This document shows, in pieces, positions 6,695-44,098 of a stretch of DNA of 64,000 bases. The notes beneath the pieces are model-generated. The model was not told the DNA's origin. It did not search any database and saw nothing but the letters and a program-made list of their open reading frames with translations. The number at the start of each line of letters is the position of its first letter. Within the stretch, counting starts at the first letter, position 1. The position numbers and the translations under genes are program-made. Origin of the DNA: Chthoniobacterales bacterium (GTDB lineage: Bacteria > Verrucomicrobiota > Verrucomicrobiia > Chthoniobacterales > JACTMZ01). The stretch is taken from positions 32,629 through 96,628 of the forward strand of contig JACSRX010000037.1 of assembly GCA_014879535.1 (NCBI GenBank), in the 5' to 3' direction.

Positions 6695-6699
6695 ACACC

Positions 6700-8112
6700 A
6701 TGAAAAGAGCCGTCCTTGTCGGCCGACCCAATGTCGGCAAATCCGCCCTCTTCAACCGGCTTGCCGGGCGGCGCATTTCCATCGTGCACGACCAGCCCGG
6801 CGTGACGCGCGACCGCATCGAGGCGGTGTGCCGCACCGGCGCGTCGCCGTTCGGCATCGTGGATACGGGGGGCATCGGCGCAGCGCCCGATCCGGATTTC
6901 GCCGAGGCGACGCACCGTGCGGCGGACGATGCCTTGGACGATGCCGATGCCGTGCTCTTCGTGGTGGACGGCAAGGACGGGCTCCTGCCGCTCGATCGGG
7001 AATTGGCGGCGAAGTTGCGCCGTGCCTCCCCGCCGGTGATTCTCGTGGTCAACAAGCTGGACACCCCGAAACACGACGACCGCGAGGCGGATTTCACGGC
7101 CCTCGGGTTTTCCAAGGTTGTAGGCGTCAGCGCCGCGCATGACCGCGGGATGGATGACCTGCTCTCTGCGGTGCAGGAGGCCTTTGGCGAAGAGACAGCC
7201 GTTGCGCCGGTGCCCGAGTTGACCATCCCGCCGCGCATCGTCATCATCGGCCGTCCGAACGTCGGGAAGTCCTCGTTGACCAATGCGCTCCTCGGGGATG
7301 AGCGGGCCATTGTCAGTGATATTGCCGGCACCACGCGGGATGCCTTGGAGGTGCCCTGCGAACTCGGCGGCCGTCCCTACCTCCTGCTCGACACGGCAGG
7401 CATCCGCCACCGCTCCAAACATAGCACCTCCGTGGAAGTGTTCAGCGTCATGCGCTCCGAAGAGGCCATCCGCATGGCCGACGTCTGCGTGCTGGTCGTC
7501 GATGCCGCGGCCGGCGTGACCGAGCAGGACAAGCGCATCGCCGGTCTCATCCAGAAGGCCCGCAAGGCCGTGGTCGTCGTGGTGAACAAGGCCGACCTGT
7601 TGCCGGAGGAAACGCACGGACGCGAGGGGCTCAAGGAGGCCTTGGAGTCATGGAGATCCCAGCTCTTCTTTCTGCCCCACGCCCCGTTGGTCCTGCTCTC
7701 GGCCAAGACGGGGGACAACCTCCGGCGCCTTGGCACCGTTCTCGAGAAGGTGCGCCAGCATGCCACGCGGCGTCTCGGCACGGGCGAACTCAACCGTGTG
7801 ATCCGCGATGCGATGACCCTGCATCCCCCGCCGGCGAAGGGAACGCGGCGCCTCAAGGTTTTCTACGCCACGCAACTCGAGGAGTCCAATCCCCGTCCAT
7901 TCGTGCCGGTGCGCTTCCTCCTTTTCGTCAATTCTCCCGGTCTCCTCACGCCGACCTACGAGACCTATCTCATCGCGCAGTTGCGCCGCGTGCGCGAGTA
8001 TCCGGGGATTCCCGTGCTCCTCGACCTGCGGGCGCGCCCGGAGTCCGAAAAGCGCGTCCGCGGGCGCCGGGGACGGGCACCTGAAACCCGCCCCGCGCGG
8101 CGCCGCAAATAG
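6700..8112 (+). CDS. der: ribosome-associated GTPase Der/EngA
   Basis: Start at ATG 6700 ([21 protein letters not shown]). Two tandem GTPase domains (second P-loop [14 protein letters not shown]) plus a KH-like C-terminus. Confidence 0.95.
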
Positions 8113-8240: not shown

Positions 8241-11200
8241 ATGAAGCAGCCCGCACGCCAAGGACTCTACGACCCGCAATTCGAGCACGAATCGTGCGGT
8301 GTCGGCTTTGTTGTCAACATGAAGGGCACGGCGTCCCACGAAATCGTGGGACAGGGGCTCCAGATTCTGGTCAATTTGGAACACCGTGGCGCCTGCGGGT
8401 TCGAGGAAAACACCGGTGACGGTGCGGGCATCCTCCTCCAGCTGCCCCACAAATTCCTCAGCGAGGTGGCCAAGGAGGAGCACATCACGCTGCCGCCCCC
8501 GGGCGAATACGGCGTGGCCATGGTTTTCCTGCCGCCGGACAAGCAGTTGCGCGACCAGATCGAGAAGCGCTTCGAGCGTGTCGTCCGTGCCGAGGGCCAG
8601 AAATTCCTCGGCTGGCGCTCCGTTCCCACCGACAACTCCACCCTCGGCGAGACCGCGAAGTCCGAGGAGCCCGAGGTGCGCATGGCATTCGTCGGACGCA
8701 ACCCGGCGATCAAGGATGAACTGGCGTTCGAACGGAAGCTCTTCGTCATCCGTCGCCGCCTCTTCAACGAAATCCGCTACAGCGGCACACCCGGCGGCAG
8801 TTTCTTCTACGTGCCGAGCTTCTCGTCGCGCACGATCGTTTACAAGGGGATGCTCACACCCCCCCAGGTCGCCGGGTATTATCCGGACTTGGCTGATCCG
8901 CGGATGGAAAGCGCGTTGGCCCTCGTCCACTCGCGTTTCAGCACGAACACCTTCCCGAGTTGGGACCGTGCGCATCCCTACCGTTATGTCGCGCACAACG
9001 GAGAGATCAACACGCTGCGCGGGAACGTCAACTGGATGCATGCCCGCGAGGCCCAGTTGGCTTCGCCCCTCTTCGGGGACGACATCGAGAAGATCAAACC
9101 CATCATCCACCAGGACGGCAGCGACTCGGCGATGTTCGACAACTGCTTCGAGTTTCTCGTCCTTTCCGGACGGCCGCTGGCGCATGCCGCGGTCATGATG
9201 ATTCCCGAGCCTTGGGCCAACCACAACGAGATGCCGGCGGATCTCCGGGATTTCTACGAATACCATGCCAGCCTCATGGAGCCGTGGGACGGCCCGGCGG
9301 CGGTCGCGTTCACCGACGGCACCCAGATCGGCGCGGTCCTCGACCGCAACGGCCTGCGTCCCTGCCGGTATTACGTCACCAAGGACGACCTTGTCATCAT
9401 GGCGTCCGAGGTCGGCGTTCTCGACATCGACCCCGAACGCGTCGAGTCGAAGGGCCGCCTCCAGCCCGGCCGCATCTTCCTGGTGGACACCAAGGAGGGG
9501 CGCATCATCGCCGACGAGGAAATCAAGGCGGAACTGGCCAAGGCCGAACCCTACGGCGGGTGGATCAAGGAGAACCTGGTCACGATCGAGGACCTTCCGG
9601 ACGGTGCCGAGCCCGCGCATCCGGACCACGACACGGTCACGACCAAGCAGTTCGCCTTCGGCTACACGCAGGAGGACCTCAACCTGATCATCGAGCCGAT
9701 GGCGCGCACCGCCGTCGAGCCGATCGGATCGATGGGCAACGACTCGCCCTTGGCCACGCTCTCGGACAAGCCGCAGTTGCTCTACAACTATTTCAAGCAG
9801 CTCTTCGCGCAGGTGACCAACCCGCCGATCGATTCGATCCGCGAGGAGATCGTCACCTCGACGATCACCACGCTCGGCTCCGAGGGCAACCTCCTCGATC
9901 CGACCCCCGAAAGCTGCCGCCAGATCCAGTTGGCATCGCCGGTGCTCAGCAACGAAGAGCTTGAAAAACTGCGCGCCCTCGACCGCCCCGGATTCAAATC
10001 CGCAACCCTGCCGATCCTCTACGACGTGGCCGGCGGAGGCGCCGCCTTGGCCAAGGCGTTGGAAGGTCTTTTCAAGGAGGCCGACCGCCAGATCGCCTCA
10101 GGCGTCAACATCCTCATTCTTTCCGACCGCGGGCTCGGCGAAGCGCAGGCGGCCATCCCAGCCTTGCTCGCGGTGTCCGGCCTGCACCATCACCTCATCG
10201 AGAACGGCACACGCACGAAGATCGGACTCGTCCTCGAGTCCGGCGAGCCCCGCGAGGTGCACCACTTCGCCCTGCTCACCGGTTACGGGGCCGGTGCGGT
10301 CAACCCTTATCTCGTGTTCGAGTCCATCGAGGACGTCATCAGCCGCGGCAAGCTCGCCGGAATCGACCCGAAGAAAGCGGTCAAGCAATACATCAAGGCC
10401 GCGGTCAAGGGCATCGTGAAGACGATGTCGAAAATGGGCATTTCGACGATCCAAAGCTACCGCGGTGCGCAGATCTTCGAGGCCGTCGGCCTCAACAGCG
10501 AAGTGGTGGACAAGTATTTCAAATGGACCGCCTCCCGCATCGAGGGACTCGACCTCGAAGGCATCGCCCGCGAGGTGGAGATGCGCCACCGGCGCGCGTG
10601 GCCCGGCCGCGACTACCGCGACGAGGTGCTCGATCCGGGCGGCGTTTACAAGTGGCGCCACGACGGCGAGCACCATGCCTTCAACCCGACCACGATCCAC
10701 CTGCTGCAGCACGCCTGCCGCACGGGCGACATGGACGTGTTCCGCAAATACTCCGCCTCGGTCAACGACCAGTCGCGCAAACTGTCGACCCTGCGCGGGC
10801 TCATCGACTTCGAGTTTCCCGAGGATGGGGGGATCCCCATCGAGCAGGTCGAATCCGTCGAGTCGATCATGAAGCGCTTCAAGACCGGCGCCATGTCCTA
10901 CGGGTCGATCAGCTCCGAGGCGCACGAGACCTTGGCCATCGCCATGAACCGCATCGGCGGCAAGAGCAACACGGGTGAGGGGGGCGAAGACCCCGGCCGC
11001 TACACCGTGATGCCCAACGGCGATTCGAAGAACAGCGCCATCAAGCAGGTTGCATCCGGCCGCTTCGGCGTCACCAGCTACTACCTCTCCCAGGCCAGGG
11101 AACTGCAGATCAAGATCGTGCAGGGGGCCAAGCCCGGCGAGGGAGGACAGCTTCCCGGCACCAAGGTCTATCCTTGGATCGCCAAGGTGCGGCATTCCAC

Positions 11201-12833
11201 ACCGGGTGTCGGCCTGATTTCGCCGCCACCGCACCACGACATCTACTCGATCGAGGACCTCGCCGAGCTGATCCACGACCTCAAGAACTCCAACCGCCAC
11301 GCCCGCGTTTCGGTCAAGCTCGTCAGCGAGGTCGGTGTCGGCACCGTCGCCGCCGGCGTCTCCAAGGCGCATGCCGACGTCGTGCTCATCAGCGGCTACG
11401 ACGGGGGCACCGGGGCTTCGCCGCTTTCCAGCGTCCAGCATGCCGGCATGCCGTGGGAACTCGGCCTGGCCGAGACGCACCAGACCCTGCTTCTCAACAA
11501 CCTCCGCAGCCGCATCGTGGTCGAGGTGGATGGTCAGCTGAAAACCGGCCGTGACGTGGTCATCGGCGCCCTCCTCGGCGCCGAGGAGTTCGGCTTCGCC
11601 ACGGCGCCGCTCGTCGTCATGGGCTGCATCATGATGCGCGCCTGCCACCTCAACACCTGCCCGGTCGGCGTGGCCACGCAGGACCCCGAGCTGCGCAAGA
11701 AATTCACCGGCGATGCCGACCATGTCGTCAACTTCATGCGCTTCATCGCCACCGAGGTGAGGGAACTCATGGCCAAACTCGGGTTCCGCACGATCAACGA
11801 AATGGTCGGCCAGGTGGACCGCCTCGCCATGCGCAAGGCCGTGGACCACTGGAAGGCCGCGGGCCTCGACTACTCCCGGATTCTCTACGCGCCGGATGTT
11901 CCGGACGATGTGGGGCGTTACTGCACCATGAAGCAGGATCACGGGATCGAGAAGTCGCTCGACATCACGACGCTGCTCAAGATTTGCGAGCCGGCCATCT
12001 CGCGGGGCAGGAAGGTGCACTCGCGGCTCCCGATCAAAAACGTGAACCGCGTGACCGGCACGATCCTCGGCTACGAGATTTCCAAGGCCCACGGCATGGA
12101 GGGTCTCCCCGAGGACACCATCACGCTCGATTTTGTCGGCTCGGCCGGGCAGAGCTTCGGGGCCTTTGCGCCGCGCGGCCTGACCATGCGCCTCGAGGGG
12201 GATGCCAACGATTACGTCGGCAAGGGTCTCAGTGGCGGCAAGATCATCGTCTATCCGCCGTCCGATGCCACGTTTGTCGCCGAGGAGAACATCATCATCG
12301 GCAACGTCGCCTTCTACGGCGCGACAGGGGGCGAGGCCTACATCCGCGGCATGGCCGGCGAGCGGTTCTGCGTCCGCAACAGCGGCGTGAAGGCCGTCGT
12401 TGAGTCCGTGGGCGACCACGGCTGCGAATACATGACCGGCGGGCGTGTCGTCGTGCTCGGCCCGACCGGGCGCAACTTCGCGGCCGGCATGTCCGGAGGC
12501 ATTGCCTACGTCCTCGACACCGCCGGCAATTTCCACACCCGCTGCAATGCCGCCATGGTCGATCTCGATCGTCTCTCCGACCCGCAGGAAATCGCCGAGG
12601 TGAGGGAAATGGTGTCGCGCCATGCCGACCTCACGGGGAGCAAGCGGGCCCACGAGGTGCTCGCTTCCTGGGATGATTTCACGCCGAAATTCGTCAAGGT
12701 GCTGCCCAAGGACTACAAGCGCGTGCTCATGGCCATGGACCGCGTCATTGCCGCCGGTCTCAGCGGCGACGAGGCCGTGATGGCCGCCTTCGAGGAAAAC
12801 GCCCGCGACCTGGCCCGCGTGGGCGGCAACTGA
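8241..12833 (+). CDS. gltB: glutamate synthase large subunit
   Basis: 1530 aa. Begins with the Ntn amidotransferase region (CGVGFV), followed by FMN and GXGXG domains. Full-length GltB-like. Confidence 0.97.
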
Positions 12834-12841
12834 TTCACCAC

Positions 12842-14326
<1,485 letters not shown>

Positions 14327-14443
14327 GGAGTTGAGAGATGACAGTTGAGGGTTGAGGGCAAGCCGCTTGTCGCGATGCCGTGCAACCTGGCGAGATTGGC
14401 TTTGCCCTGCGCGGGCGATTGCCTGATGGTTCCAGCCATGCCC

Positions 14444-14528
14444 GCCGGCGTGGCGAAATGGCAGACGCAACGGACTTAAAATCCGTTGGGAGGAAACTCC
14501 CGTGCGGGTTCAAGTCCCGCCGCCGGCA
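14444..14528 (+). tRNA. tRNA-Leu (anticodon TAA), class II with long variable arm
   Basis: Hand fold. Acceptor GCCGGCG/CGCCGGC. Anticodon stem ACGGA/TCCGT with loop CTTAAAA. Variable arm GGGAG-GAAA-CTCCC. T-arm GCGGG-TTCAAGT-CCCGC. Discriminator A. CCA is not encoded. Confidence 0.9.
14461..14528 (+). repeat. attL-side direct repeat (3' 68 nt of tRNA-Leu)
   Basis: Recurs at 44016-44083 with 2 mismatches (positions 14465 and 14474). 14475-14528 is identical to 44030-44083. Confidence 0.85.
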
Positions 14529-14595
14529 CTGTATTTATCAGGGTTTACGGGCGTTTTTGGTGGTCGAGTTAAAGGAAATTTTCGGGGGTATGTTT

Positions 14596-14612
14596 TTCCA
14601 CTTTTTTCCACT
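14596..14612 (+). promoter_or_regulatory. putative integrase arm-type site (TTCCACTTTTTTCCACT), left arm
   Basis: This 17-nt motif holds a tandem TTCCACT. It recurs 16/17 at 43982-43998 in the same orientation. Both copies lie within 70 nt of the att core. Confidence 0.4.
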
Positions 14613-14932
14613 CAAGAAACCGCACCTAGTGACCAAAGCCCAAGGGCTTGCGGCTACAATGAATCTGCAAAAAATCAGGCGAACGGGGGTGCCCATGGTT
14701 AAGGCCGCTCCCTTGCCGTGACGATGGGGCTCACTTGAAGTTTGTTTGTCTGAACTTTGCGGTTCGCCCGAGGATGGCCGTGAGGCTGTGATAGCTTGCC
14801 TCGGTCGTTTTCGGGAGATTGACTCTTTACTGCCGTTCACGGCCGGCCCCCCCGTCTCCATTGTGGGAGCGGGGCCTTCTTCATGCGGGAAATTTGTGGT
14901 TGGGCATGTGGATCGCGGAGGCCGAGGAATTG

Positions 14933-15904
14933 CTATCGGCCTTCCTCGAAGTCGAGGTGGGTGTCAGAGCGTGCAACAGGCAGGTCGAAGACGGACTTGA
15001 GCTGCACCTCTAACTCCAGCACTCCATGAGAGACCAGTTTTCTTGTGGTCTCGGCCAAGGGGTCCAGAGTTGTGACGTGGGTGGTTGTCAGGAGGATGTG
15101 GATGGTTTCTGATTTGGGCGGCATCTCGCCTGTGAGGGGAGTAAACTCGCCATCGAAGACCATTTTCCACGAATCGACCTTGGCGACCCCTTGGGCTTGG
15201 TCGAAGAGACCCTCGAACTGAAGGCGACCGCGCTTGTAGCCTCTTGTTTTTTTCGAGATTGCGCCGAGTTGAAGCTTGGCGCCGTGCGGCTCTTCTGGGG
15301 ATGAGCAGTCGAACTCCACTTGCCAAGCTCGGTCGTATTTCTCGGCCTCATCGAGGCTGTCCCAAGTTTTCCTCAATATAGTGGCTAAAGGTAGCTTTTG
15401 TTTGCTCCGGATGTCATGGAAAGTGTCTTCGTCGGTGATTTGGCATTTTGTCCCATCCTTGAGAACCAGTTGAGCGAGCGTTGGAGTCAAGTCCCAGATT
15501 TCAAAGACTGCATGGGTAAGAAGTCCGCTTGGCCACCTAGGGGTGAGGGTGTCCTCGTATTTGTAGAGGGTGATGCCAAGTGCATCTGCCGTGGCAAATG
15601 CGGCCTTGGAGAAGCCCTTGGTGGAAACCATGATGGCCGCGTGTGCGCCGACATCTGCCTTGACGGAGTTGAAGGCTTCAACGGCTTTGACATCGACCTT
15701 CCGAGTCCATTTCTTGCATTCGACGATGATCAAAATTTTCTCGGTTCCGATGGTTGCCCGGATGGTTGCGTCAATCTGTCGCTTGGTCTTGGAGTTTTTG
15801 CCTTGTATGTGCTCGTTTTTGGTGACTTTGCCCGTAGTGGCGAAGTTCTTCTGGAGGCGAGCAACGAGAGCCTCGAATTGTTGCCAAGAGATGCCGCCCG
15901 CCAT
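14933..15904 (-). CDS. Mrr-like (PD-(D/E)xK) restriction endonuclease domain protein with unknown C-terminal domain
   Basis: 323 aa. The N-terminal third carries the Mrr_cat pattern: QIDATIR ... ILIIVECKKW ... AAIMVSTKGFSKAAFATADALGITLY. I did not recognise the C-terminal ~200 aa. Confidence 0.65.
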   Translation of the reverse strand: MAGGISWQQFEALVARLQKNFATTGKVTKNEHIQGKNSKTKRQIDATIRATIGTEKILIIVECKKWTRKVDVKAVEAFNSVKADVGAHAAIMVSTKGFSKAAFATADALGITLYKYEDTLTPRWPSGLLTHAVFEIWDLTPTLAQLVLKDGTKCQITDEDTFHDIRSKQKLPLATILRKTWDSLDEAEKYDRAWQVEFDCSSPEEPHGAKLQLGAISKKTRGYKRGRLQFEGLFDQAQGVAKVDSWKMVFDGEFTPLTGEMPPKSETIHILLTTTHVTTLDPLAETTRKLVSHGVLELEVQLKSVFDLPVARSDTHLDFEEGR

Positions 15905-15916
15905 ACGACTTCAACC

Positions 15917-16081
15917 TCACTTCCGTTTGGTCTTCAACGTCTTGGTCGTCGGGGCCAAAGGTGTAACTACCTGCTGACGGTCGACTCCGTAGGTGGTGAA
16001 AAGCTCGCCCCAGAATGATTTGGCCTCTGCTTCTTCCCATTTCTCAGCGAAGTGGGCCAACCGGTCGTGGATTTCGTTCAT
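15917..16081 (-). pseudogene. N-terminal remnant of an MmeI/PglX-type (type IIG/L) restriction-modification enzyme
   Basis: Own translation of a 54-codon ORF gives MNEIHDRLAHFAEKWEEAEAKSFWGELFTTYGVDRQQVVTPLAPTTKTLKTKRK*. Compare my recollection of the MmeI N-terminus: WNEIRRKAIEFSKRWEDA..QAKPFLIDFFEVFGI..RV. The ORF is followed by two in-frame stops and then the Mrr-like start. Confidence 0.45.
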
Positions 16082-16326
16082 TAAAAGCGTGGATGGTATA
16101 ACGACGCAGCGTGTTTTACGGGGCCATTGTCGTTTCTCAGGCCTGCATTCCTATCGGTCAAGGGTTAGCGGTCGTATGGCATACTTTTTCATTCCGTTTG
16201 GCGCTTGGGAGCTTTGATGGTGACGATGGCTTTGTATCCGCGTTCGGCGATCGTTAGCCAACTTTTCGGGACTGCCATGGTGAGATTCCCTTTCGGGGCC
16301 AGCAACCAGAGGTTTTGGGAAGGGTT

Positions 16327-19300
16327 CTAGTCGGTTGCCGTGGGGTTCTGGCCATCTTCAAGGAGTCGGTATTCCAGTCGTCCGAGGCGGATAAGATGGT
16401 CCTGCACTTCTCTGGCTTTGTGCACGACATCCGGAAGCCCGCTATTGAGAGCGATGCGCAGGATGGTCTTGGCCTTGTCTTCCTGACCCCACCAAGGTGG
16501 AGTTTTCTTGGGGCCGAACGTCAGCATGTGTAGGCAGGCCAAAGCCTGAACCGGATGCGTCGAGACCTGCTTGGCCAAAAAATCGAAAGGCAACAACTGG
16601 TGTTCAAAATCTGAACCAGAGAGCAGAGTCAAAACTTGCAATAGTCTCCGTAGCGTCCATTCCGGCGGCAGCTTCTCAGAATCTGCCCAACGCACGATGC
16701 CTCGGAGTTCCCGCGTCTCGGGGGAGTGGGGCTGCTCGTCTTTGAGTGCGGCGATACGCCAATCGGCGAGGTCCATGAACCGCTTGGCTACCGGCGCGGG
16801 CAATGGCCCTTCCGTCTTGTGAAGGACCCGTGCGATGTAACGAAAAACGTATTCCCGTAGGCTCGTGGTGGCAGTCTCGAAGAAGGTGGTAAGCAGCGAG
16901 GGAGAGTCAATCGGTTCGTATCCCCACCAATAGTAGGCGCAAAGGTGGTGTATCAAACCCTTCTGTGGGCACCAATCGGAACTTGGCTTATCTACCAACT
17001 CAGATCGGCATGCTTCGATGGCGCGCCCATATTCGGATCGAAGGACTTCCAAGGCAGCTTTGGAAGGTCTGCACATGGTGACGAAACAGTTCCAGATGGC
17101 GTCACGTTTATCCGAGTCGGCCCGAGGGAAGAATGACGCCAGACGACTTTCGAGCCACATGCGGTGGTGTCTGAGGAACCAGTTCATCCGCTCCCCGAAC
17201 ACGCTTCGGCCGCCTAAGGACGGTTCCTTGCGGAGGACTTTTTCCAGAGTTTGCAGCACTTCCGACGAGTCAGTGATCTCCCCTCGACGCAGCCACCGGT
17301 CGTAGGCGAAGACGCACCGCAGGGCAATGGGACGGGGGGTGTTGAGCGAGGTCGAGGATAGCTGTTCTGGGAGGGGTTCTTTCTCTTCTGCCTTGGGAGT
17401 CGGGTCAGGATGCTTCAAGAATGCCTCAATGCACTTGAAGACGAGCGACCGATGATCACGAGGAGGCCGATTATTGTCCAAGGCAACCTCAATGGCGCGG
17501 ATAAGAGTTATGCCGAGGCTTTTTTCACGATCATTGGCGTCCCCCTCTGCATGCGGGATGACCTTTTCCTGCACCGCTTTCTCCGTCGCCTCAAGTAATA
17601 CCATCCAATCAACCGATAAGTCTTCGTTGGCAACTTCCCAGAGGCCTTCGAGAAGAGCGGCATAGCGCGCGGGACTCAATTTATCGTATTCATTAATTTG
17701 CGCCAAAATCTTCGCTGAATGTTGCTTGGAGGCCGCTTTGAGAGCTCCTAAAAGTCCCGCTTCGGAGGGGCCATCATAAGGGTCTTTCTCGCGCCAGTGC
17801 GCCAACTCTCCGACGAGACTTGCAGCTGGCATCTTCACAATTTCTTCAGCCGTTTTGGGGCTGTGTTGCTGGACGATCCACGTTCCCCCGGACGACTGGT
17901 AGTGAAATTCGATGGGCTCCACGCTATTCAGTCCTTCACAGAGATCCGGGTGCGCGGCCTTCCAGTCCACCGGTATGCTGTCCTTGATGATCGCGAGCTT
18001 TTGGCGCCAGCGGTCTGCTTTCCACTGATCTAGTTCTTGAGACGTCGGACTCCGGCCATGGTTGACATCCTTGTAGTAGCTGATCGCCACCGAAAGGTCC
18101 GGCTCTGTAATGATCCAGTCTAGGATAGCGTGTTGGTCTCCTTTGGAAAGATGGCGAAATTGCTCGCGGAGTAGAAGCGACCACTCGTGCCAAGCTTCGG
18201 TGCCATTTCTTACCTCATTGTCAAATAGGCAACTTCGGATCTGCTCTCTTCCTGCCGCCTCTGGATTTGTGCGAAGCAGATGAATGCGGATGCGTTTGAA
18301 AATCATCCAATGAGAGACCGTAAGCACTTCCTCGATTGTCGAGAACTCCACCTGCTGCTGAGAGAGAGTTGCCTCCGCTAGATCGCGGATGGCTGAAATC
18401 AAGATTCCTCTTTGATCCTCGTGGTGATTCTGCTCGCTGTCCTCAACGGAACCTCGCCAGAATACGGATCCATCGTAGCTGCCCCGCTCTTCCATCTCGT
18501 CTGGCCAAGTCCTGTTTCGGATGTTCTCGGAAAGAGCAACGACGAAGAGGCGGAGCAGCGACAGACGGTCTTGGGGCTGGACGAAGTTGAGTAGCTGGGT
18601 GACGAAATCCTGCGTGGAATCTGAGTCTAGCGTGGGTTCCGGCTCGGGCGAAAGCAGGCTCAATGCCATCTGCTCTGTCTCGCGCTGAGTCTCCTTCTCC
18701 TCCAGCCGAGGATCAGGATGGGCTTTGAGCGCAGCACCGATGAGCCGCTCGACCTCTGGGGTGATCCCTCCTTGCACGATTGGTCCAACGAATTCAACCA
18801 AGGCGCGACTGAGAATAAAGGATCCTCGCCTTGCCTCGATCCACGTTGTTGCCAAACCGACGAAGGTTTCGCGGCTTTGATCAGGAAGTTTCAGTGCGAG
18901 GTGCAAGAGCTGATGGCGAACCCAGTCATCATCCAGTTTCGCAAGCAGGAGTGCCGCCTCGGCAACATCATCAGTGGCGTCAGCCACAAGTCTGAGGAGG
19001 AGGTCCACTTCAGGGGTGCCCGCGTTGGAATGATCGACTTGGGGACCATTCGGTGATTCGGGATCGAACCATCCGGCCTCAACAAGTATCGGCAGCCATG
19101 AGGCGTTCCGTATGGCCGCGAAGAAAGCGGAGCGGTCGTGGTGGCCGTCCACCATCGTCCGGATGATGTGGAGAGTCTCCGGTGTGGGATTTCTGCCAGT
19201 CTCTGCCACGACCCTTTCGATTTGTTGAAGTTTCTCCGGCTCACTGGGGCGGAGGTAACGAAGCAGCAGCAGCTCCAATTGGTCTAGCAGTCGCAGCAGC

Positions 19301-19878
19301 TCTTCCTCAGTAGAGGCTTTGTGGTGTGCAATTGGTTTGAGGCTGGAGAGGATCTCATGCCATTCTTGTCGATCCCGCTCGAATGTATTTGGAGGTTTTC
19401 TCCGGCGCTGGAGACGATCAAGAGCCGTGCCAGCTCGCTCGATCCCAAGAGGACGATGTGTATCAAACCATTCAATAAATTGGCCAAAGTTTGCCACGAA
19501 AGGCTCAAGTGAGGGGGCATCTCCAATTGTATGACCCTCTTGGGCCTCCTTTTGGAGATTTAGCCATGGCTTCCTGACAAGTCTCTCCAACTGCTCATGC
19601 ATCTTTAGGTTGCTTTTCGAAGGACCTTTCGACCATGTGAATGCCAGATCCATCACTTCCCGCAGGCAGTGAGCTGCTATTGCGATGTAGTCGTGCGATT
19701 TGTCATGAAGCGCCCCAAGAGCGCCGAGATAGATTTTAGGGAGCCTTTCATCATGGGCTTCAAGAAGGCGGAGAAGGACTAGCTGCCGGGGAGTGAGGAC
19801 ATGTGAACCGAGTCTGACTTCGTGGTTAGCTTCCGGTGTGGGGAAGCTGCTCTCTGCGTCTTCTTCGGGGGCGGTCAT
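16327..19878 (-). CDS. large (1183 aa) predicted all-alpha protein, function unknown
   Basis: Long uninterrupted ORF with an ATG start. Helix-rich, Leu/Arg/Glu-rich sequence with no enzymatic motif I can assign. Sits between the XRE regulator and the nuclease genes on the same strand. Confidence 0.7.
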   Translation of the reverse strand: MTAPEEDAESSFPTPEANHEVRLGSHVLTPRQLVLLRLLEAHDERLPKIYLGALGALHDKSHDYIAIAAHCLREVMDLAFTWSKGPSKSNLKMHEQLERLVRKPWLNLQKEAQEGHTIGDAPSLEPFVANFGQFIEWFDTHRPLGIERAGTALDRLQRRRKPPNTFERDRQEWHEILSSLKPIAHHKASTEEELLRLLDQLELLLLRYLRPSEPEKLQQIERVVAETGRNPTPETLHIIRTMVDGHHDRSAFFAAIRNASWLPILVEAGWFDPESPNGPQVDHSNAGTPEVDLLLRLVADATDDVAEAALLLAKLDDDWVRHQLLHLALKLPDQSRETFVGLATTWIEARRGSFILSRALVEFVGPIVQGGITPEVERLIGAALKAHPDPRLEEKETQRETEQMALSLLSPEPEPTLDSDSTQDFVTQLLNFVQPQDRLSLLRLFVVALSENIRNRTWPDEMEERGSYDGSVFWRGSVEDSEQNHHEDQRGILISAIRDLAEATLSQQQVEFSTIEEVLTVSHWMIFKRIRIHLLRTNPEAAGREQIRSCLFDNEVRNGTEAWHEWSLLLREQFRHLSKGDQHAILDWIITEPDLSVAISYYKDVNHGRSPTSQELDQWKADRWRQKLAIIKDSIPVDWKAAHPDLCEGLNSVEPIEFHYQSSGGTWIVQQHSPKTAEEIVKMPAASLVGELAHWREKDPYDGPSEAGLLGALKAASKQHSAKILAQINEYDKLSPARYAALLEGLWEVANEDLSVDWMVLLEATEKAVQEKVIPHAEGDANDREKSLGITLIRAIEVALDNNRPPRDHRSLVFKCIEAFLKHPDPTPKAEEKEPLPEQLSSTSLNTPRPIALRCVFAYDRWLRRGEITDSSEVLQTLEKVLRKEPSLGGRSVFGERMNWFLRHHRMWLESRLASFFPRADSDKRDAIWNCFVTMCRPSKAALEVLRSEYGRAIEACRSELVDKPSSDWCPQKGLIHHLCAYYWWGYEPIDSPSLLTTFFETATTSLREYVFRYIARVLHKTEGPLPAPVAKRFMDLADWRIAALKDEQPHSPETRELRGIVRWADSEKLPPEWTLRRLLQVLTLLSGSDFEHQLLPFDFLAKQVSTHPVQALACLHMLTFGPKKTPPWWGQEDKAKTILRIALNSGLPDVVHKAREVQDHLIRLGRLEYRLLEDGQNPTATD

Positions 19879-19963
19879 CTTAAGCCAAGAATAAGGGAAG
19901 TTCCGGGATTTGGGAAATGCTCAGACCTCCCTTAGCCAACTCCTCGGGAATCTTTGTCAGATT

Positions 19964-20209
19964 CTAACTCTCAAGAATTAGAAGCCTCGCCCGCAGGACT
20001 TTCAACAGAGCAAGCAGCTCCAAATCGGTCAGTGTCCGGCGTTGAGCCTCGATGTGGCCAAGGTTAGTTTCCGACAGCTCCCACCCTTGAACGCCAAGCT
20101 TGGCAGCAACTTGGGCTTGCGTCAGGCCCTTTGCCCGCCGCAGGGCTTTCAACTTCGGGCCGAACGCATTTTTCTTGCCGGTCTCCTTGCCAACAGGTTT
20201 GCGAGGCAT
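19964..20209 (-). CDS. XRE-family helix-turn-helix transcriptional regulator
   Basis: HTH_3 pattern: LKALRRAKGLTQAQVAAKLGVQGWELSETNLGHIEAQRR. ATG at 20209 is preferred over the TTG at 20230 given in the track. Confidence 0.75.
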   Translation of the reverse strand: MPRKPVGKETGKKNAFGPKLKALRRAKGLTQAQVAAKLGVQGWELSETNLGHIEAQRRTLTDLELLALLKVLRARLLILES

Positions 20210-20273
20210 CCTCTTAAGCCTACCTGTCAACTTCCTTCTTGAGCCTATTCATGGATAGGGTAAGAAACGCCGG

Positions 20274-21164
20274 ATGCAAAAGGGCTTGTCGGCGTTGTCT
20301 CTGGCATTGTGGGCCTGTTTATCAGCTTTCCCGGCATTGTCGGCGGGAGCCGAGAAATGGGAGAAGCTTGAAAGCTGCCGCCTGAACGAAACCGCATATT
20401 TTGACGGCGATTCGTTCAGCGTGTTTCACGCAGGCGGCGAACTCATCGTGCGTCTGTATTTTGTGGACTCCCCGGAGACGGACGAAAGCTTTCCCGACCG
20501 TGTAAGGACGCAGGCCGGGCACTTTGGCAAGAGCGTCGAGGAAACTCTCCATGTCGGCAGCTACGCGAAGCAAGCCACAGCACAGCTCCTTTCCCGCCCC
20601 TTCACGGTCTTGACCAAATACCAAGATGCAAAAGGCCAAAGCGCCATGCCTCGACACTTCGCCTTTGTCACTACCGCAGACGGGAAGGACCTCGCTGAGA
20701 TCCTCGTGGCAAACGGGCTGGCGCGTTCGTATGGAGAGATTGCGGCGCCGCAGGGAAAGAACGCGGCCGCGCTGAAAGCCAAATATGATCGTTTGGATGA
20801 CAAGGCGAGGCGGTCAAAGTTTGGGCTTTATTCCCCACAGCCACTAACGGCGATTTCCCACGGGAAAGATCTTCAACTCGACAAACTGACCTTGGCGGAA
20901 GCGCAGGCGAAGGCGGCACCAATCCCGGCGCCTCAGGTTGCCAAGGCGCCTATGTCTGCGTCCGTCGGAATATCGCCGTCCACAGTTCCGGCTTCCGCGC
21001 CGAACCACGGCATGCCGTGGACAGCGGAGCAGGAGCAGACCTTGAGGGATTGCCTCGGCAAAGGCGTAACGGTTGAAGACATAGCCGCCGAGCTTGGTCG
21101 GACGCCCGTGGCCATCCTCGCCCGAATCCGCAAGTTGGGACTGCCGGAGCCGGGCCTTCCATGA
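20274..21164 (+). CDS. secreted staphylococcal-nuclease (SNase)-like protein with C-terminal GcrA-like HTH domain
   Basis: Signal peptide MQKGLSALSLALWACLSAFPALSAGA. SNase pattern DGDSFSV...VRLYFVDSPET. The C-terminus MPWTAEQEQTLRDCLGKGVTVEDIAAELGRTPVAILARIRKLGL aligns with my recollection of the GcrA N-terminal domain (MSWTDERV..LKKLW..GLSASQIA..LGGVTRNAVIGKVHRLGL). Confidence 0.65.
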   Translation: MQKGLSALSLALWACLSAFPALSAGAEKWEKLESCRLNETAYFDGDSFSVFHAGGELIVRLYFVDSPETDESFPDRVRTQAGHFGKSVEETLHVGSYAKQATAQLLSRPFTVLTKYQDAKGQSAMPRHFAFVTTADGKDLAEILVANGLARSYGEIAAPQGKNAAALKAKYDRLDDKARRSKFGLYSPQPLTAISHGKDLQLDKLTLAEAQAKAAPIPAPQVAKAPMSASVGISPSTVPASAPNHGMPWTAEQEQTLRDCLGKGVTVEDIAAELGRTPVAILARIRKLGLPEPGLP

Positions 21165-21183
21165 CCAAACACGACCCGAATTG

Positions 21184-24100
21184 ATGATCAACCCATTCCA
21201 ACCCGCCATGTCTGTTCAATTGAGAACAATCGCTGCCTCCGCAGCATTCTTGATTCTTGCTCTGCCCGCATGGGCTGATCCGTTCGATTCCGCCAATCCC
21301 CGCTCAACCGTGGAGGACGTTTTGAAAATGGAGCCCGAACCCCAAGGAACTTTGCATGCTTTGGTGCGGGGCAGACTTTTGGGTGTGACGGGGCTAAAGA
21401 TGACGGAGGGATCGGTTTCAAGATACAAGATGTGGCTGACCACCATGGGAGCAAATCCATCGGTCCACGTGAGGGAGGGGACGGATGAGAAAGTGCCTCC
21501 GCCTGAAGAACTTCAGGCCTGGATTGGCAAGGAAATCGAAGTGTCTGTAAATGTGCAGAAGTGGGATGACGCAGGCTTCTCCCTTCACAGATGGAGAGAT
21601 GGCCATGAACCGCGTCTGGCCGGACAGGAATCCGGGGACAAACCGACCGCCGACATTCACCCGTTGGCGATCTTTGCAGACCTTCCGAGGGTTTCTGTGA
21701 AGGAACTTAGGAAGAAGGATATTTCAAAGGACTTCGGCGCATTCTCCGGTCACCCAGTCCTTATCATTGGAAAGTTGTACTCAGTCGTCGGCGAGGGCCT
21801 TAGCACTCGGAATTTCTGGATGACTCAAAATTCAGGCAAGGGATCGGTCTCTTTCTCTATGGACCCTGGCAGAGATGCCGATGAAATTAAAAAACTGGTA
21901 GGAAAGGAGATAGCGATCTTAGCCGGCAATGTTGGCAAACTGCCAAGCGAACTGCGATCGGCTGTTGAGTTTGACATCAGCGCTGAAAATTTTCTCGATC
22001 AAGGCCGCGTGCGCCCTGCCGTGTTTCTCTCAGCTGATATTCCCGCAGCAGGCGCTCCTTCAGTTCCGCAACACAAGGTTCTTCCGGCAGCGCCCGCAGG
22101 TTCCACGGCAAATCTCCAGCCAGCTAGAAATATCCCTCGACAAGTATCCTCGCAACAAACTGGCACGCTGCTTGCCCCGCTGCGGGTCGAACTCAAACAC
22201 AATGGAAAGGCCGTTGGTTCGACGACACTTCAGCCGGGCACCTCGTTGCCGATTGTGAAGTCGGATGGGGCGCGTGCCTTGGTCAAACACGCCGGAGGGG
22301 AAAGCTGGGTGCAAGCGGCGAGCGAGTGGGATGTTACCCAAATCGCCGACCTCACCGCTGATCTGTCTGGAGGGCGTGAGTTAATGGCCAGCGTGAAAGC
22401 CAGCCTCGTGATCACCAACGATGAGCCACGCGTTGCATGGATCACACCCAGCGGTTTGTTTTTCGCGGAGCGCAAAGCCAACCAATGGGAGGTGGAGAAG
22501 ATCGATGGATGGAACCTCGATCCGGAAGGAGAGAGGCGGGTAAACTGCCAGCTTTACCTCGATAGCGATGGCAAACCCCACATTGCCTATACCTCTTCCG
22601 AAAGCCCGGGTTTCTTGAAATATGCGGTGCGCGGCAGCAACGGCTGGAGCATCGACACGGTGTTCAGAGCGGATTCGTATGGGAAAAATGGCACTGCTGG
22701 TGCTCGTTTGGCTGTGGGGGAGTGGAAGGGTGCCATCGCGATAGCATCATGGAATGCCCCCAGAGCCAGCAGGGGAGAGCCCTCGTTGTGGACCTCGGTC
22801 GACGAATCTTGGGTTGAGCAGGATCTTGACGCAGAAAGCCGCGGTGGCATTCGCACAATCCCAAGGGACGTCTTGTTCTCCCGGGGCAATGCACTCGATC
22901 TCTTGGGGTTAAGCTGGCTTGATAAGAAGGTTGGGGAGGGGGGTGACACCAAGTGGTGGCCAAGTTTTGGTCAATCAGACGGCCAGAAATGGGTTGATCA
23001 GAAAATCCAAGCCCCCCAACAGCAAGACGTGGCCCCGCATTTTCTGGCGAGCCATGGGGAGCAGGTTTACGCCTCCTTCTCCACGGCTTTCAACAATTGC
23101 CTGAACCTTGCACGGCGATCAGGCGCTTCCTGGGAGATCATGTCGTTGGATCCCGCAAAGCTTTTGGATATGGCTTCCGAGGGTGCTCCGAAGTGGAGTT
23201 GGTTGATCTGGGATTCTCTTCCATTTCTCGGGGGGAGAAGGGACGCGCTTCTCGCGGGGATGGATGCATTCGCTGAGAACAGAATCGGATTGCTCATGGC
23301 AAATGGAGTGGGCGATTCGGAGGGGGAACATGCCGTTTATTACGGCGATGTCATCTTCCCGAGTCGTTGCCTTTCCGAAAAGGTCGCAGCAGGCTTCCCC
23401 TGCGCTTTCGCATTCGACGAGGGCGCAACGCCGCACATCGTTTTCGTGAATGCAGGCGAGTTGTGCCTCGCCACGCGCAAAAGTGCTGCCCAAATCGCGG
23501 CAGGCAAGCAGGAGGGAGCGGGGCTCCGGCTTCCGGAGGCCGTGCAGAATGTCCGGCCGGCCACCGCCAAAGTTCTTCCAGAAAAAATCCGCCCGGGCTC
23601 AGAGCTAGAGCGGATGCAACGTATCGCGGCCTTGGGGGAGCCTCAGAAGTTCACGCTTCCTGTCGCCGGCGAGAATGCCCAGTTCATTCGCTGGGGCAGT
23701 GGAGACAAAGCCATTGTTTTTTTCACGCAAACTCCGAAGTGGACCGAAACACGCAGTGTCGGCAGGGATGGAGAAAAAAAGGGGTTCGTAAAACGCTTTA
23801 ATGAATCCCCGTCTGCCATTGCCTCCCAGATCGATGCCTATGCCCCTTGGCTCGAAAATGGCTACTCGGTGATTGCTTGGGATTACCCGCGCGACCCGCA
23901 ACGCGACAATCGCAAGGAGGGCGAAATCGACGAAGCGCAACTTCACCCCGACCATTCAGGAGCTGCAAAATCCATGATCGAAGCCCTGCGCGAGAAAGCG
24001 GGGCTGACCGAGTTGATTCTTATTGGCAACACAGACGGAGCGGAACTGCTGCTCTGGGATTTGGCGGCGCTTGAGGGAGATCAAGAGGCCAAGGTCATAC

Positions 24101-24342
24101 TCGTGGCTCCGAAATTTCACCACCTGCCCGATATTTCGAAACTGCCTGATCAGGCAAAGGCTGTGATCATCGATAACACCGATTCCATGTATTATACCCA
24201 ACACCATCCGGAAGCAGGAGCTTGGGTCAAGGCCCATCGTTCCGATGCCACCGATACGCTCGCCCCGGGTGGGGGGCACCCGGCGGTTGGCGCTGATATT
24301 GGTCATGAAACCTTTGCCCAATGGCTTTTGAATTCGAAATGA
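21184..24342 (+). CDS. large secreted protein, unknown function
   Basis: Start at ATG 21184. Signal-like segment RTIAASAAFLILALPAWADP. An SH3b-like stretch is followed by repeated beta-rich segments (HIAYTSSESPGFLKYAVRGSNGWS). The C-terminal part resembles an alpha/beta-hydrolase (LILIGNTDGAELL). Confidence 0.6.
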   Translation: MINPFQPAMSVQLRTIAASAAFLILALPAWADPFDSANPRSTVEDVLKMEPEPQGTLHALVRGRLLGVTGLKMTEGSVSRYKMWLTTMGANPSVHVREGTDEKVPPPEELQAWIGKEIEVSVNVQKWDDAGFSLHRWRDGHEPRLAGQESGDKPTADIHPLAIFADLPRVSVKELRKKDISKDFGAFSGHPVLIIGKLYSVVGEGLSTRNFWMTQNSGKGSVSFSMDPGRDADEIKKLVGKEIAILAGNVGKLPSELRSAVEFDISAENFLDQGRVRPAVFLSADIPAAGAPSVPQHKVLPAAPAGSTANLQPARNIPRQVSSQQTGTLLAPLRVELKHNGKAVGSTTLQPGTSLPIVKSDGARALVKHAGGESWVQAASEWDVTQIADLTADLSGGRELMASVKASLVITNDEPRVAWITPSGLFFAERKANQWEVEKIDGWNLDPEGERRVNCQLYLDSDGKPHIAYTSSESPGFLKYAVRGSNGWSIDTVFRADSYGKNGTAGARLAVGEWKGAIAIASWNAPRASRGEPSLWTSVDESWVEQDLDAESRGGIRTIPRDVLFSRGNALDLLGLSWLDKKVGEGGDTKWWPSFGQSDGQKWVDQKIQAPQQQDVAPHFLASHGEQVYASFSTAFNNCLNLARRSGASWEIMSLDPAKLLDMASEGAPKWSWLIWDSLPFLGGRRDALLAGMDAFAENRIGLLMANGVGDSEGEHAVYYGDVIFPSRCLSEKVAAGFPCAFAFDEGATPHIVFVNAGELCLATRKSAAQIAAGKQEGAGLRLPEAVQNVRPATAKVLPEKIRPGSELERMQRIAALGEPQKFTLPVAGENAQFIRWGSGDKAIVFFTQTPKWTETRSVGRDGEKKGFVKRFNESPSAIASQIDAYAPWLENGYSVIAWDYPRDPQRDNRKEGEIDEAQLHPDHSGAAKSMIEALREKAGLTELILIGNTDGAELLLWDLAALEGDQEAKVILVAPKFHHLPDISKLPDQAKAVIIDNTDSMYYTQHHPEAGAWVKAHRSDATDTLAPGGGHPAVGADIGHETFAQWLLNSK

Positions 24343-25990: not shown

Positions 25991-25998
25991 ACGCCTTG

Positions 25999-28900
25999 AT
26001 GAAGACCTACATGAGAAGCAGAGTGGCGGGATGGGGGCTGGCAATGCTGACCGTCTGTTGCCCGCGTGTGGTTGCGGAGATTCCCTATCCTGTATGGGAG
26101 AGCGTTCCTGTGGACCCCTCGGCAATGCCCGTGATTTTGGACATGAACGACCCCCTGCCTCCCGAAGAGGAGGTGCATTCGCTGATGTTGCAGAGTTGGA
26201 GTGAAGAGAGTTTTGATGAGGAGATCGTTGCGCTCGCCACCGCGCTGGGGGATGGCAGTGCGGCCAGTGGTGAAAACGCGGAGGCCAAAGCGGTCCGGGT
26301 GTTCAACTGGGTTCGCAACAACATTGACTACGATTACTATTACGGATTGCGCAAAGGGGCGGCCCTCACCCTCCTTGAGAGTTCCGGCAATGATTTCGAC
26401 CAATCGGCATTGCTGGCTGAGTTGCTGGTGGCGTCAGGTTATCCGGCATCGGACGTGAAGCTGCTGCTCACCTCGCAGCCGGTGGACTACGTCGATCTTG
26501 TGGAATGGATGGGACTTGCTGAGGAGCCCTATCCGGGCAAGACCTTCCTAGAGGCGAACGGGGTGTCAATAACCAGCGTCGGCTTCCCGGCTGGCACCAG
26601 CGACTTGGTTGCCAAGCAGGCGTTGTTCGGTTGGCAGTTTCTTAACAGTCGTGGACCCGGTAATGACGTATTCCCCAATGGCTCAGAACTTCCCAGCAAG
26701 GCGAACTTGGTCTTCCGACGGATGTTTGTGCGTCTCACCGTGGGAAGTGTGACTTACGATCTCGATCCATCTCGCAAGGTCTATGAGAAGATCACAGCCG
26801 CCAATGCCCTGCCAGCCGCCATCGGGTATGATCGCTCGTCGCTGCTCTCGGCCGCCGGGGGCACCGGTGATTCCAATTCCACGTCCGGGCTCAACCAGAC
26901 CAATATCGCCACGCACTTAACAGCGCGAACCACGCAGCTTCTGGACGAGTTGAGCGGCGCGTGGTCGGGTCTTTCCATGGAGGAGGTGATCAATGGTCGC
27001 CGGATCGTCCGGCAGGATGTTTCCAATCTCGCCGACGCCTCCACTGTGCCCGGCGACTATTACGGTGCAGCGACGCTCTTCGCTTCGGCATCGGACTCCG
27101 CGTTGGCAGGTTACAAGACGACTGTGAATTTCAAGTCCACGGAGGCGGCAGGCTTGGACTACACGATTGCGACCGCGGATTTGAAGGGCCGCAAAATCAC
27201 GCTGACCTTCAGCGGAAACAACGCCGAGTTGCGGCTGGACGATGACGAGGTGGCCGACACCGGGGCTCTGGGGTCCGCGACGGTTATGAACCTTTCGATC
27301 ACGGTGACGCATCCGGGGATGGGGGCGATCAGTAATCCGCCAGCCACCTACCGGAAGACGACCTCGGCGTCGGAGCTATGCTCCTATGCAATCATCTACG
27401 GATTCAACGCTTCGGAGCGGCTGCTGGCCAAACGGCAGGAGCGGCTCAAGGCCTACAAGGATGCCGGGCTGCCCGATGATTCCCGCGAAGTCCGCACGGA
27501 GCTTCTCAACATCATGGGGCTGACTTGGCTTCGCCAGACCGGGATATGCACCCGCGCGCTGTCGGCGCAGAACAACGTGCTGTCTCTCGCGCATCACCGG
27601 TTCGGACGGATGGCGCAGGAGGCGGGTTTCTATGTGGACGTCGGCATCCAGCTTTCCAGTAATTTCCCAGACGACGCCATTCCCGGCCCGAACCATCCCT
27701 CGGCATCCGCTCGCTTCGGTAATGTGTTTCATCTGGGCGCGATGTTCGCGAGTGCGATGGAGCACGGGATCATCGAGCAGATGCAGCCCGGCAGCTCAGC
27801 CGTCTCGACTGTGAACATCCTGAGGCTGGCCAACAGCACATCCGGCAATGCCCTGTATCTTGCCACTTCCTCGAATTGGAGCACCGTTTCACCAATCCTC
27901 GCGACGAACGGTTATACCACAGCGCAGATCAGCGACTTCAATGCCCGCATCAGCGGAGGTGCGCGGATTTTTCTGCCGAAAAACGCGGGCGTCTCCCAGG
28001 GCATCTGGGACGGTTCCGGCTGGGCGATTCGCTCTCCCACCAACGCGGGCATGATCATCAGCGGGGGCTACAGCGGAGGGTATTCGACGACCCCCAGCGT
28101 GGTCAGCTACTCCCCGATCAACACGAGTTATGCATTCAGTCCGGCCTCGATCTATTTCACACCGTCTATTCCTGTAAGCCTGCCTCCCCCGCCCGTATCG
28201 ACGCCAAAGTTCTACGGAAGCGATCCCGTGGACATGGCTACGGGCGCCTTCGTTTATGCCTCGGAGGACCTGGCGACGGGTCTGGAGGCAGCGCCGCGAG
28301 GGCTGGCGTTCTCGCGGTATTATTCCTCGGGCCAATCGGCCCGCGACGAGCAGAACATGGGCCATGGGTGGACGCACAACTTGCACATCCAAGCCGAACC
28401 TCGCACCGCGTCCGACGAGGCGTTGGGGATGGGTTCCCCACAGCAGGCCGCGGCGTTCCTTGTGGCGATGACCGCGGGTGCCGATCTTTACCGGGAGGGC
28501 GCCACCCCCAAGGAATGGGGCGTGGCGGCGCTGGTTGTGGGCTGGTTCGTGGACCAGATGCGCGACAATGCGGTCTCCGTGCGCATGGGCAAGGATGTGT
28601 TCCAGTTCGTAGCTCAGCCCGACGGGAGCTACACGCCACCGCCCGCTTCCACCATGACCTTGGGCAAAACGACGAACTCCACCTACTTCCTGCAGCAGCG
28701 TTTGGGCAATACAGTCCATTTCGATGCCCGGGGCAAGGCATCAAAAATTGTGGATGTTGACGGACGGGAAATGACCTTCATCTACAACTCCAGCACCAAC
28801 TTGGATTACGTGCAGGATCATGTGGGCCGCAGGTTCACCTTCGGCTACGATGGCAACAAGCGCATCACCTCAATTGCCGATTCGACCACCCCGTCGCGCA

Positions 28901-43938: not shown

Positions 43939-43981
43939 GGGCGGAAGAAAACTTCCCCCAAATGGAAAAGAAAAGGTTTTT

Positions 43982-43998
43982 CTCCACTTTTTTCCACT
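43982..43998 (+). promoter_or_regulatory. putative integrase arm-type site, right arm
   Basis: CTCCACTTTTTTCCACT is 16/17 identical to 14596-14612. It lies between the int start (43938) and the att repeat (44016). Confidence 0.4.
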
Positions 43999-44015
43999 TT
44001 CTTTTCTTTACCTAC

Positions 44016-44083: not shown

Positions 44084-44098
44084 GCCGGCAATTGCACG

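Follow-up and report, generated by a model that had tools for sequence, protein, structure and literature searches.

Do neighbouring genes at the tRNA end of a genomic island form one antiviral system, or do they only share a location? The question is raised by a cluster of four elements on the minus strand (14933-20230) of a 64-kb stretch of DNA, referred to here as the window, from a metagenome-assembled genome (MAG) contig of the Chthoniobacterales (Verrucomicrobiota). In the direction of transcription they are an XRE-family helix-turn-helix (HTH) gene, a gene for a protein of 1183 amino acids (aa; the giant protein), a 54-codon remnant of a type IIG-like gene, and a gene for a 323-aa Mrr-like nuclease. 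An earlier reading of the letters (the original prediction) had reported all four, with positions and lengths that were recovered here, and had proposed that the giant protein and the nuclease act together under XRE control as an undescribed defence module. The analysis favours another reading, at a probability of about 0.7: the giant protein would carry a sensor-plus-effector defence architecture of its own, and the Mrr-like gene would be independent of it. So read, the locus is a small defence cluster made of two separate defence genes and one regulator, and not a three-gene system.

A predicted Dsr1-type sensor in the giant protein

The giant gene (16327..19878, minus strand) is an intact open reading frame (ORF), and its product (MBE2180285.1) is annotated by NCBI as 'hypothetical protein'. 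The original prediction could not place this protein in any family. A family can now be named: the protein matches the PADLOC model for Dsr1 (PDLC04166, E 2.1e-21), with aa 473-1019 aligned to model positions 550-1077 of 1227, and all 40 relatives sampled match the same model, the best at E 2.8e-60 over model positions ~500-1219 of 1227. Dsr1 stands for defence-associated sirtuin 1, and reportedly goes back to Gao et al. 2020. The portion of the model that the giant protein aligns to is the C-terminal, non-SIR2 part. The NCBIfam Dsr1 model (NF041818) gives 17.7 bits (E 5.9e-4) and does not reach its equivalog cut-off of 1400 bits. Pfam has no family for the giant protein and NCBIfam nothing usable, and none of the 40 sampled relatives has a Pfam family over the core region. 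There is no Pfam match to SIR2 in the giant protein, nor a Pfam or NCBIfam match to an NTPase/AAA family, and a SIR2 hidden Markov model (HMM) built from the split partners described below had no match when the window was searched in all six reading frames.

A word-indexed search returned four close homologues with 53-69% identity and end-to-end alignment. The profile of these five sequences, searched exhaustively against 1.84 billion cluster representatives, matched 3976 clusters (defined at 50% identity) with E values up to 1e-3, of which 1374 reach 1e-30 or better. Most of the matching proteins are ~950-970 aa long and cover giant positions ~230-1180, while a minority of 1100-1200 aa cover the N-terminal ~230 residues as well. 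AlphaFold models the full giant protein as entirely helical, in agreement with the original prediction (predicted local distance difference test score, pLDDT, 65.8; predicted template modelling score, pTM, 0.44). The Dsr1 model matches and the helical solenoid together lead us to read residues ~230-1183 as a predicted Dsr1/Avs7-type alpha-solenoid sensor (aa ~231-1183, 16327..19188, minus strand).

Structure prediction had been suggested as a check on the protein, and its yield was mixed: the N-terminal domain gave a confident model (see below) with no match in the PDB, and the full-length model, searched with Foldseek, gave only generic HEAT/ARM solenoids (importins, CAND1), which are functionally uninformative. 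A PDB sequence search with the whole giant family gave no real match. With structural matches limited to importins and CAND1-like solenoids, and with no Pfam family, the protein could be viewed as a housekeeping HEAT/ARM scaffold that is a chance passenger of the island. This view is effectively refuted by the strong and specific homology to the Dsr1 sensor, by the obligate pairing of the sensor with one of two N-terminal partners, and by the mobile-element and defence contexts and patchy phyletic distribution of the family. The same sensor homology, the defence contexts of the relatives and the patchy spread uphold the earlier proposal that the giant protein is a defence protein.

One of the homologues, the 1005-aa protein P0004 (locus L001, called 10001-13018), appears truncated at its N terminus. 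The DNA upstream of its called start (9557-9715) resembles the window sequence coding for the N-terminal domain, which suggests that the start was called wrongly or that the reading frame is shifted in this MAG.

A helical domain in the effector position

The N-terminal helical domain (N-dom) comprises aa ~25-230 of the giant protein (19189..19806, minus strand), and its position corresponds to that of an effector, as indicated by structure prediction, conservation and a survey of loci. Genome loci encoding members of the giant family were fetched (79 in all, spanning many bacterial phyla, archaea and Candidate Phyla Radiation bacteria, with a patchy phyletic spread), and ORFs were called in the 67 that were complete enough. 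In 22 of the 67 loci N-dom and the sensor form one fused protein; in 19, N-dom has its own co-directional gene upstream (HMM E down to 2e-56); and in a further 14, where the fused and separate forms were not distinguished, it lies directly upstream of the sensor, giving 55/67 loci with N-dom fused or directly upstream. The separate N-dom genes encode 205-300 aa and either overlap the sensor gene (by 4-50 nt) or tightly abut it, and the two are probably translationally coupled. Examples of such split pairs are 6684-7409 / 7393-10275 in L017 and 3635-4564 / 4561-7512 in L014.

A SIR2_2 protein of ~300 aa takes the place of N-dom in 10/67 loci. These partners match the Pfam family at E 1e-9 to 4e-15, as well as the PADLOC models ThsA, Dsr1 and LmuA, and the arrangement of a SIR2_2 gene followed by a sensor gene is Dsr1 split into two genes. 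Neither an N-dom nor a SIR2 partner was resolved in the two remaining loci. One or the other thus stands in this place, fused or upstream, in 65/67 loci, N-dom being the commoner of the two in this sample (55 vs 10). N-dom is assigned to the effector slot because the sensor is nearly always paired with N-dom or SIR2 in that position, and it is, as judged from these sequences, the predicted effector module equivalent to the SIR2 NADase.

No mention of the split, two-gene effector/sensor form was found in the main text of the 2026 paper on this sensor family (cited below). A 1598-aa ORF in L035 was considered as a new type of fusion and dropped, as the ORF call has probably run on from a thioredoxin-like gene. 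On a plasmid of Streptomyces sp. NBC_00212 (L091, NZ_CP108116.1, 5395-8667), a 1090-aa protein (WP_331721222.1) consists of N-dom (E 1e-28) and the sensor. Its gene adjoins TnsA-like, Mu-transposase-C-terminal (tnsB) and TniB genes, a setting that suggests a defence gene carried by a Tn7-like transposon.

Conservation and possible activity of N-dom

AlphaFold, supplied with a 32-sequence alignment, models N-dom as an 8-helix bundle with a pLDDT of 85.4. A word-indexed search with the N-dom profile gave only 10 proteins. Across 104 N-dom sequences with a mean pairwise identity of 23%, R73 is invariant (100%), and H70 (90%), E74 (90%, with Asp in another 8%), W173 (93%), H185 (93%) and D/E221 (92%) are nearly so. 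Near-invariant polar residues at such divergence suggest an active site. Pfam has no model for N-dom, and a single family match recurs: 13 of 37 N-dom members match pP_pnuc_1, a predicted nuclease linked to the Argonautes of prokaryotes. All of these matches are below the gathering threshold (best 22.2 bits, E 1.1e-4; threshold 26.3 bits), and the alignment is limited to profile positions ~4-42 of 133, that is, to the helix with the H-x-x-R-E motif. The PADLOC Aga_Nuclease model matches 4 of the 37. From its position, its conservation and this one weak similarity, the best guess for N-dom is a nuclease or RNase, and the chance that it has nuclease activity is put at slightly under even.

The original prediction had pointed out three R-x4-H strings in the giant protein (aa 37-42, 321-326 and 1156-1161), reminiscent of HEPN motifs, and had given them little weight. 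That caution was well placed: the strings are present, and are unconserved even among the four close homologues. An HEPN RNase, as proposed from such strings, was rejected, there being no R-x4-6-H column in the 104 N-dom sequences; the invariant R73 and the conserved H185 are ~110 residues apart. N-dom may nevertheless be the domain that the 2026 paper calls HEPN-like in a protein of Streptomyces sp. NBC_00271, because the protein of Streptomyces sp. NBC_00212 carries N-dom and the sensor. A point of difference is that N-dom has no conserved R-x4-6-H.

Genomic context of the giant family

The four close homologues are all inside type I restriction-modification (R-M) operons, between hsdS and hsdR and 12-13 bp after hsdS. 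The gene order is (XRE)-hsdM-hsdS-giant-(GIY-YIG-RAMA, GmrSD or a 439-aa protein)-AbiEi-AbiEii-hsdR. The product of the gene following the giant gene is GIY-YIG-RAMA in loci L001 and L002; in L003 and its near-duplicate L004 it is GmrSD. The gaps are 12-43 bp. In L005 this slot (13581-14900) is occupied by the 439-aa protein, which has a hydrophobic N-terminal stretch and long predicted helices, and matches no family or nuclease. Defence genes embedded in hsd operons are a familiar pattern, PrrC and RloC being the classic cases. In the window itself, tblastn found no remnants of hsdM, hsdS, hsdR, AbiE or GmrSD across the 64 kb, and DNA similarity to the related loci ends at the boundaries of the giant coding sequence.

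Such a setting would suit a different role for N-dom, as a non-enzymatic adaptor or regulatory bundle through which the giant protein recruits or regulates a neighbour (type I R-M in the close relatives), which would leave the window copy an orphan. The position of all four close homologues within the hsd operon is consistent with this, as is the lack of a significant match between N-dom and a known enzyme fold. It is considered unlikely on several grounds. Type I R-M genes are near only ~7 of the 79 loci, and the association, despite being found in 4/4 cases in the window's clade, was rejected as a trait of the whole family. No third gene is conserved next to the giant gene. In 10 loci the place of N-dom is taken by SIR2, whose toxicity as an effector is proven, and the near-invariant His/Arg/Glu/His/Asp set of N-dom, at 23% mean identity, resembles an active site. 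The giant gene of the window is also intact and full-length despite having no hsd genes.

The absence of a conserved third partner comes from a Pfam census of neighbours (148 genes from 45 loci). The defence families it contains are AAA_21 (6 genes), Methylase_S, Eco57I and T1R (3 each), Schlafen/AlbA_2 (3) and TIR (2), and it also includes recombinases and housekeeping genes. The original prediction had recommended a neighbourhood analysis of homologues, looking for defence enrichment and for co-occurrence with Mrr-like genes. Defence contexts were indeed found, and Mrr-like co-occurrence was not (0/79 loci).

The Mrr-like gene

The 323-aa protein (MBE2180283.1) is encoded by an intact ORF at 14933..15904 (minus strand). 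Its N-terminal third contains, as had been described from the letters alone, an Mrr-type core (Mrr_cat, aa 5-115, E 3.7e-14, 53.3 bits vs a 21-bit cut-off). Its C-terminal ~200 aa match no family in Pfam and no sequence in the PDB. About 30 full-length homologues were found, with identities of 27-56%. In an alignment of 16 of them, D45 and E62-x-K/R64 are kept, so the catalytic core is intact, and the C-terminal ~200-aa domain is conserved among the homologues. A search of the PDB with the family profile found nothing. The protein is probably a type IV-like restriction enzyme. It shares the Mrr_cat PD-(D/E)xK core, with its conserved D and ExK, with Mrr and other type IV enzymes, and differs from them in its reversed domain order (the catalytic domain is N-terminal), in having no match to the Mrr_N winged helix, and in a C-terminal domain without a known relative.

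Could this nuclease be the effector of the giant protein? In such a system of XRE, giant and Mrr-like proteins, the giant protein would sense infection and the Mrr-like protein would cut. The genes are co-directional and adjacent, and in L001-L004 the gene directly after the giant gene (12-43 bp away) is likewise nuclease-like. Against this, the Mrr-like homologues stand alone in the three contexts examined, where the neighbourhoods are unrelated and often mobile, no Mrr-like homologue occurs in any of the 79 giant-family loci, and in the window the two genes are separated by 422 bp and the type IIG remnant. The downstream partner varies among the relatives, which is typical of a variable defence slot, and the partner in L005 has no nuclease match. 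The giant protein, moreover, carries a conserved domain of its own in the effector slot. A single system of this kind is accordingly regarded as very improbable, and the earlier claim of joint action is not sustained. The Mrr-like protein is best read as an independent, solo nuclease whose gene lies in the same defence hotspot as the giant gene.

The XRE gene and the type IIG remnant

The XRE gene (19964..20209, minus strand) encodes 81 aa from an ATG at 20209, which is preceded by an AAGAGG-like site; an alternative TTG start gives an ORF of 88 aa (19964-20230). Its product matches HTH_31 (5.8e-9) and HTH_3 (1.6e-7), both above cut-offs. From the XRE stop to the start of the giant gene there are 85 bp, one fewer than the 86 bp reported earlier. 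The window XRE is 38-41% identical to the XRE proteins heading the operons of L002 and L003 (and of the near-duplicate L004). In another relative, P0144 (1307 aa), an HTH_3 domain (aa 116-168, E 2.9e-10) is fused ahead of N-dom and the sensor, a hint that XRE regulators are functionally tied to the giant family. By tblastn, the XRE was found in 0/79 family loci, and it is not a general feature of the family. The operon-heading XREs and the P0144 fusion give modest support to a regulatory link, so the control proposed by the original prediction remains plausible, and the XRE protein is probably a transcriptional regulator of the giant gene.

The 54-codon ORF (15917..16081, minus strand) had been interpreted as the decayed N terminus of an MmeI-like gene, and this interpretation stands. 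It matches PADLOC REase_MTase_IIG (E 1.1e-5) at model positions 5-58 of 912, and Pfam MmeI_N below the cut-off (E 0.003, 18.3 bits vs 27 bits). It is a remnant of a type IIG-like gene, a pseudogene fragment that lies outside the giant system.

Proposed mechanism and its weighing

The giant protein would be an immune protein that unites effector and sensor in one chain, the sensor being of the Dsr1/Avs7 kind. The alpha-solenoid that makes up its C-terminal ~950 aa would, by homology, bind a phage structural protein, and binding would switch on the N-terminal N-dom, which stands in the place of the SIR2 NADase. Once activated, N-dom would act as a toxic enzyme through the H70/R73/E74/H185/D221 cluster, with nuclease or RNase activity the likeliest, and the outcome would be abortive infection. 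The XRE protein would probably repress or otherwise control the giant gene. The Mrr-like protein would be an unrelated solo nuclease in the same attL-proximal defence slot, beside the type IIG stump.

Several points weigh against this picture. Every pP_pnuc_1 match is sub-threshold and confined to the first ~40 profile positions. Foldseek found no significant solved structure for N-dom in the PDB (best E 0.35), and profile searches of the PDB with the long and short forms of N-dom gave nothing meaningful (only de novo helical bundles or nothing significant); the enzymatic assignment is drawn from conservation and position, since no significant structure or curated-family match was obtained. 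The full-length AlphaFold model is mediocre, as its scores given above show. Identity between the window sensor and most family members is only ~22-27%, and the trigger of the N-dom-bearing members is an extrapolation from characterised relatives. No experiment on an N-dom-carrying member was found in the text of the 2026 paper. Lastly, the gene of the window's clade is always in a type I R-M operon elsewhere, with a nuclease-like next gene in 3 of 4 distinct arrangements, and some functional coupling of the giant protein with its neighbours is possible.

Relation to known systems

The sensor of Avs7 is common to Dsr1 and to other proteins that lack a STAND NTPase and carry diverse N-terminal effectors, and 9,097 proteins with an Avs7/Dsr1 sensor were catalogued in 2026 (PMC12803255; PMC13581612, the catalogue being in the latter). 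The phage major capsid protein triggers both SeAvs7 of Salmonella and EcDsr1 of Escherichia coli, and disruption of the effector domain abolishes toxicity and defence (PMC12803255; PMC13581612). The kind of protein to which the giant protein belongs, a capsid sensor with swappable effectors, is therefore already described, and the earlier view of the cluster as an undescribed kind of module has been overtaken by these reports of a sensor family with exchanged N-terminal effectors (PMC12803255, PMC13581612). By analogy, a capsid protein may also trigger the giant protein, a tentative extension with the odds leaning somewhat against it.

Like Dsr1, the giant protein combines an N-terminal effector and a homologous C-terminal alpha-solenoid sensor on a single chain, and relatives of the window protein also exist as split SIR2 and sensor gene pairs. 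It differs from Dsr1 in having the ~200-aa helical N-dom instead of SIR2, and in the XRE gene upstream. With Avs7 and the STAND-less sensor proteins it shares the sensor superfamily and the exchangeable N-terminal effector; unlike Avs7, it has no STAND NTPase module. DSR2 is reported to combine SIR2 with a HEAT-like C-terminal domain sensing the phage tail tube protein (PMC10981675, PMC11850899). There too, a toxic domain at the N terminus is freed when a large sensor of helical repeats binds a structural protein of the phage, but the sensor family (the giant protein has no PADLOC Dsr2 match), the effector and the known trigger are different.

The likeness to pP_pnuc_1 / AgaN-type nucleases consists of the sub-threshold similarity at the H-x-x-R-E helix in 13/37 N-doms, and is limited to ~40 of 133 profile positions; no Argonaute is present in the neighbourhood. 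The four closest homologues resemble other genes embedded in type I R-M operons in lying between hsdS and hsdR together with AbiEi/AbiEii and type IV-like nucleases. The window copy, in contrast, has no hsd genes nearby, and the giant protein is unrelated to PrrC and RloC.

The island and its other genes

The cluster was described earlier as lying directly inside attL of a tRNA-integrated island, and the features expected of one are present. A tRNA-Leu(TAA) gene, the integration site of the island, is at 14444..14529 (plus strand, ARAGORN). Its last 68 nt (14461-14528) are duplicated as a direct repeat at 44016-44083 with 97% identity, and a tyrosine integrase-like ORF (42763-43938, minus strand) adjoins this distal repeat. 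From the repeat and the integrase-like ORF it follows that the cluster is the tRNA-proximal end of an island of ~29.5 kb. The integrase-like gene sits at the island end far from the intact tRNA-Leu. A second short repeat, TTTTTCCACTTTTTTCCACT, occurs after the tRNA (14593-14612) and before the tRNA copy (43979-43998), and its order relative to the tRNA repeats is not explained by a single simple integration event. The AT-richness reported for the region was also found, GC being 0.54-0.56 over 15-20 kb vs 0.64-0.67 in the flanking core genes. Promoter and terminator scans over 14.5-20.6 kb performed no better than on shuffled sequence.

Two staphylococcal-nuclease-like paralogues, 52% identical over 200 aa, are encoded on the plus strand. 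One (20274-21164), which follows immediately past the XRE gene within the island, has a C-terminal GcrA-like HTH. The other (43874-44830) comes directly after the distal tRNA-Leu repeat, and its true start is probably downstream of 44083, because the repeat falls within the ORF as called. A plus-strand ORF at 21094-24342 encodes 1082 aa without a match in Pfam, PADLOC or NCBIfam. Further along (25996-32208, plus strand) is a gene for an RHS-repeat protein of 2070 aa, whose N-terminal region is transglutaminase-like and which also contains a DUF6531 domain; it is probably a polymorphic toxin belonging to the island's cargo. GC reaches its lowest values in the window (0.49-0.52) at 32-35 kb, downstream of this gene. 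A 110-nt direct repeat is present in two copies (36940-37049 and 37072-37181; 85% identity, 132 nt from start to start), and its 17-nt core is also found at 21277-21293.

Implications

Since the broad concept of a capsid sensor with exchangeable effectors was published in 2026, the gain is incremental rather than conceptual, and the remaining interest lies in the N-dom effector, which is abundant and has no curated family model. Within the loci sampled, a Dsr1-type sensor is usually paired with this undescribed helical domain and not with SIR2 (55 vs 10 of 67 loci). The pairing of N-dom and sensor, as a fusion or a two-gene operon, is useful for annotation, and is missed by PADLOC, Pfam and NCBIfam.

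A bolder proposal, and a doubtful one, is that N-dom represents a so-far uncharacterised family of all-alpha effector enzymes with an H-x-x-R-E ... H ... D active site, the commonest partner of Dsr1-type sensors, activated in trans where the genes are split, and that in the window's clade type I R-M operons and an XRE switch have also taken up the module. If the reading given here is true, the split N-dom genes (at least 19 of 67 loci) would imply that a sensor of the Dsr1 type is able to switch on its effector in trans. For the Verrucomicrobiota MAG, an unannotated protein becomes a testable candidate immune receptor, with a sensor, an effector slot and five candidate catalytic residues.

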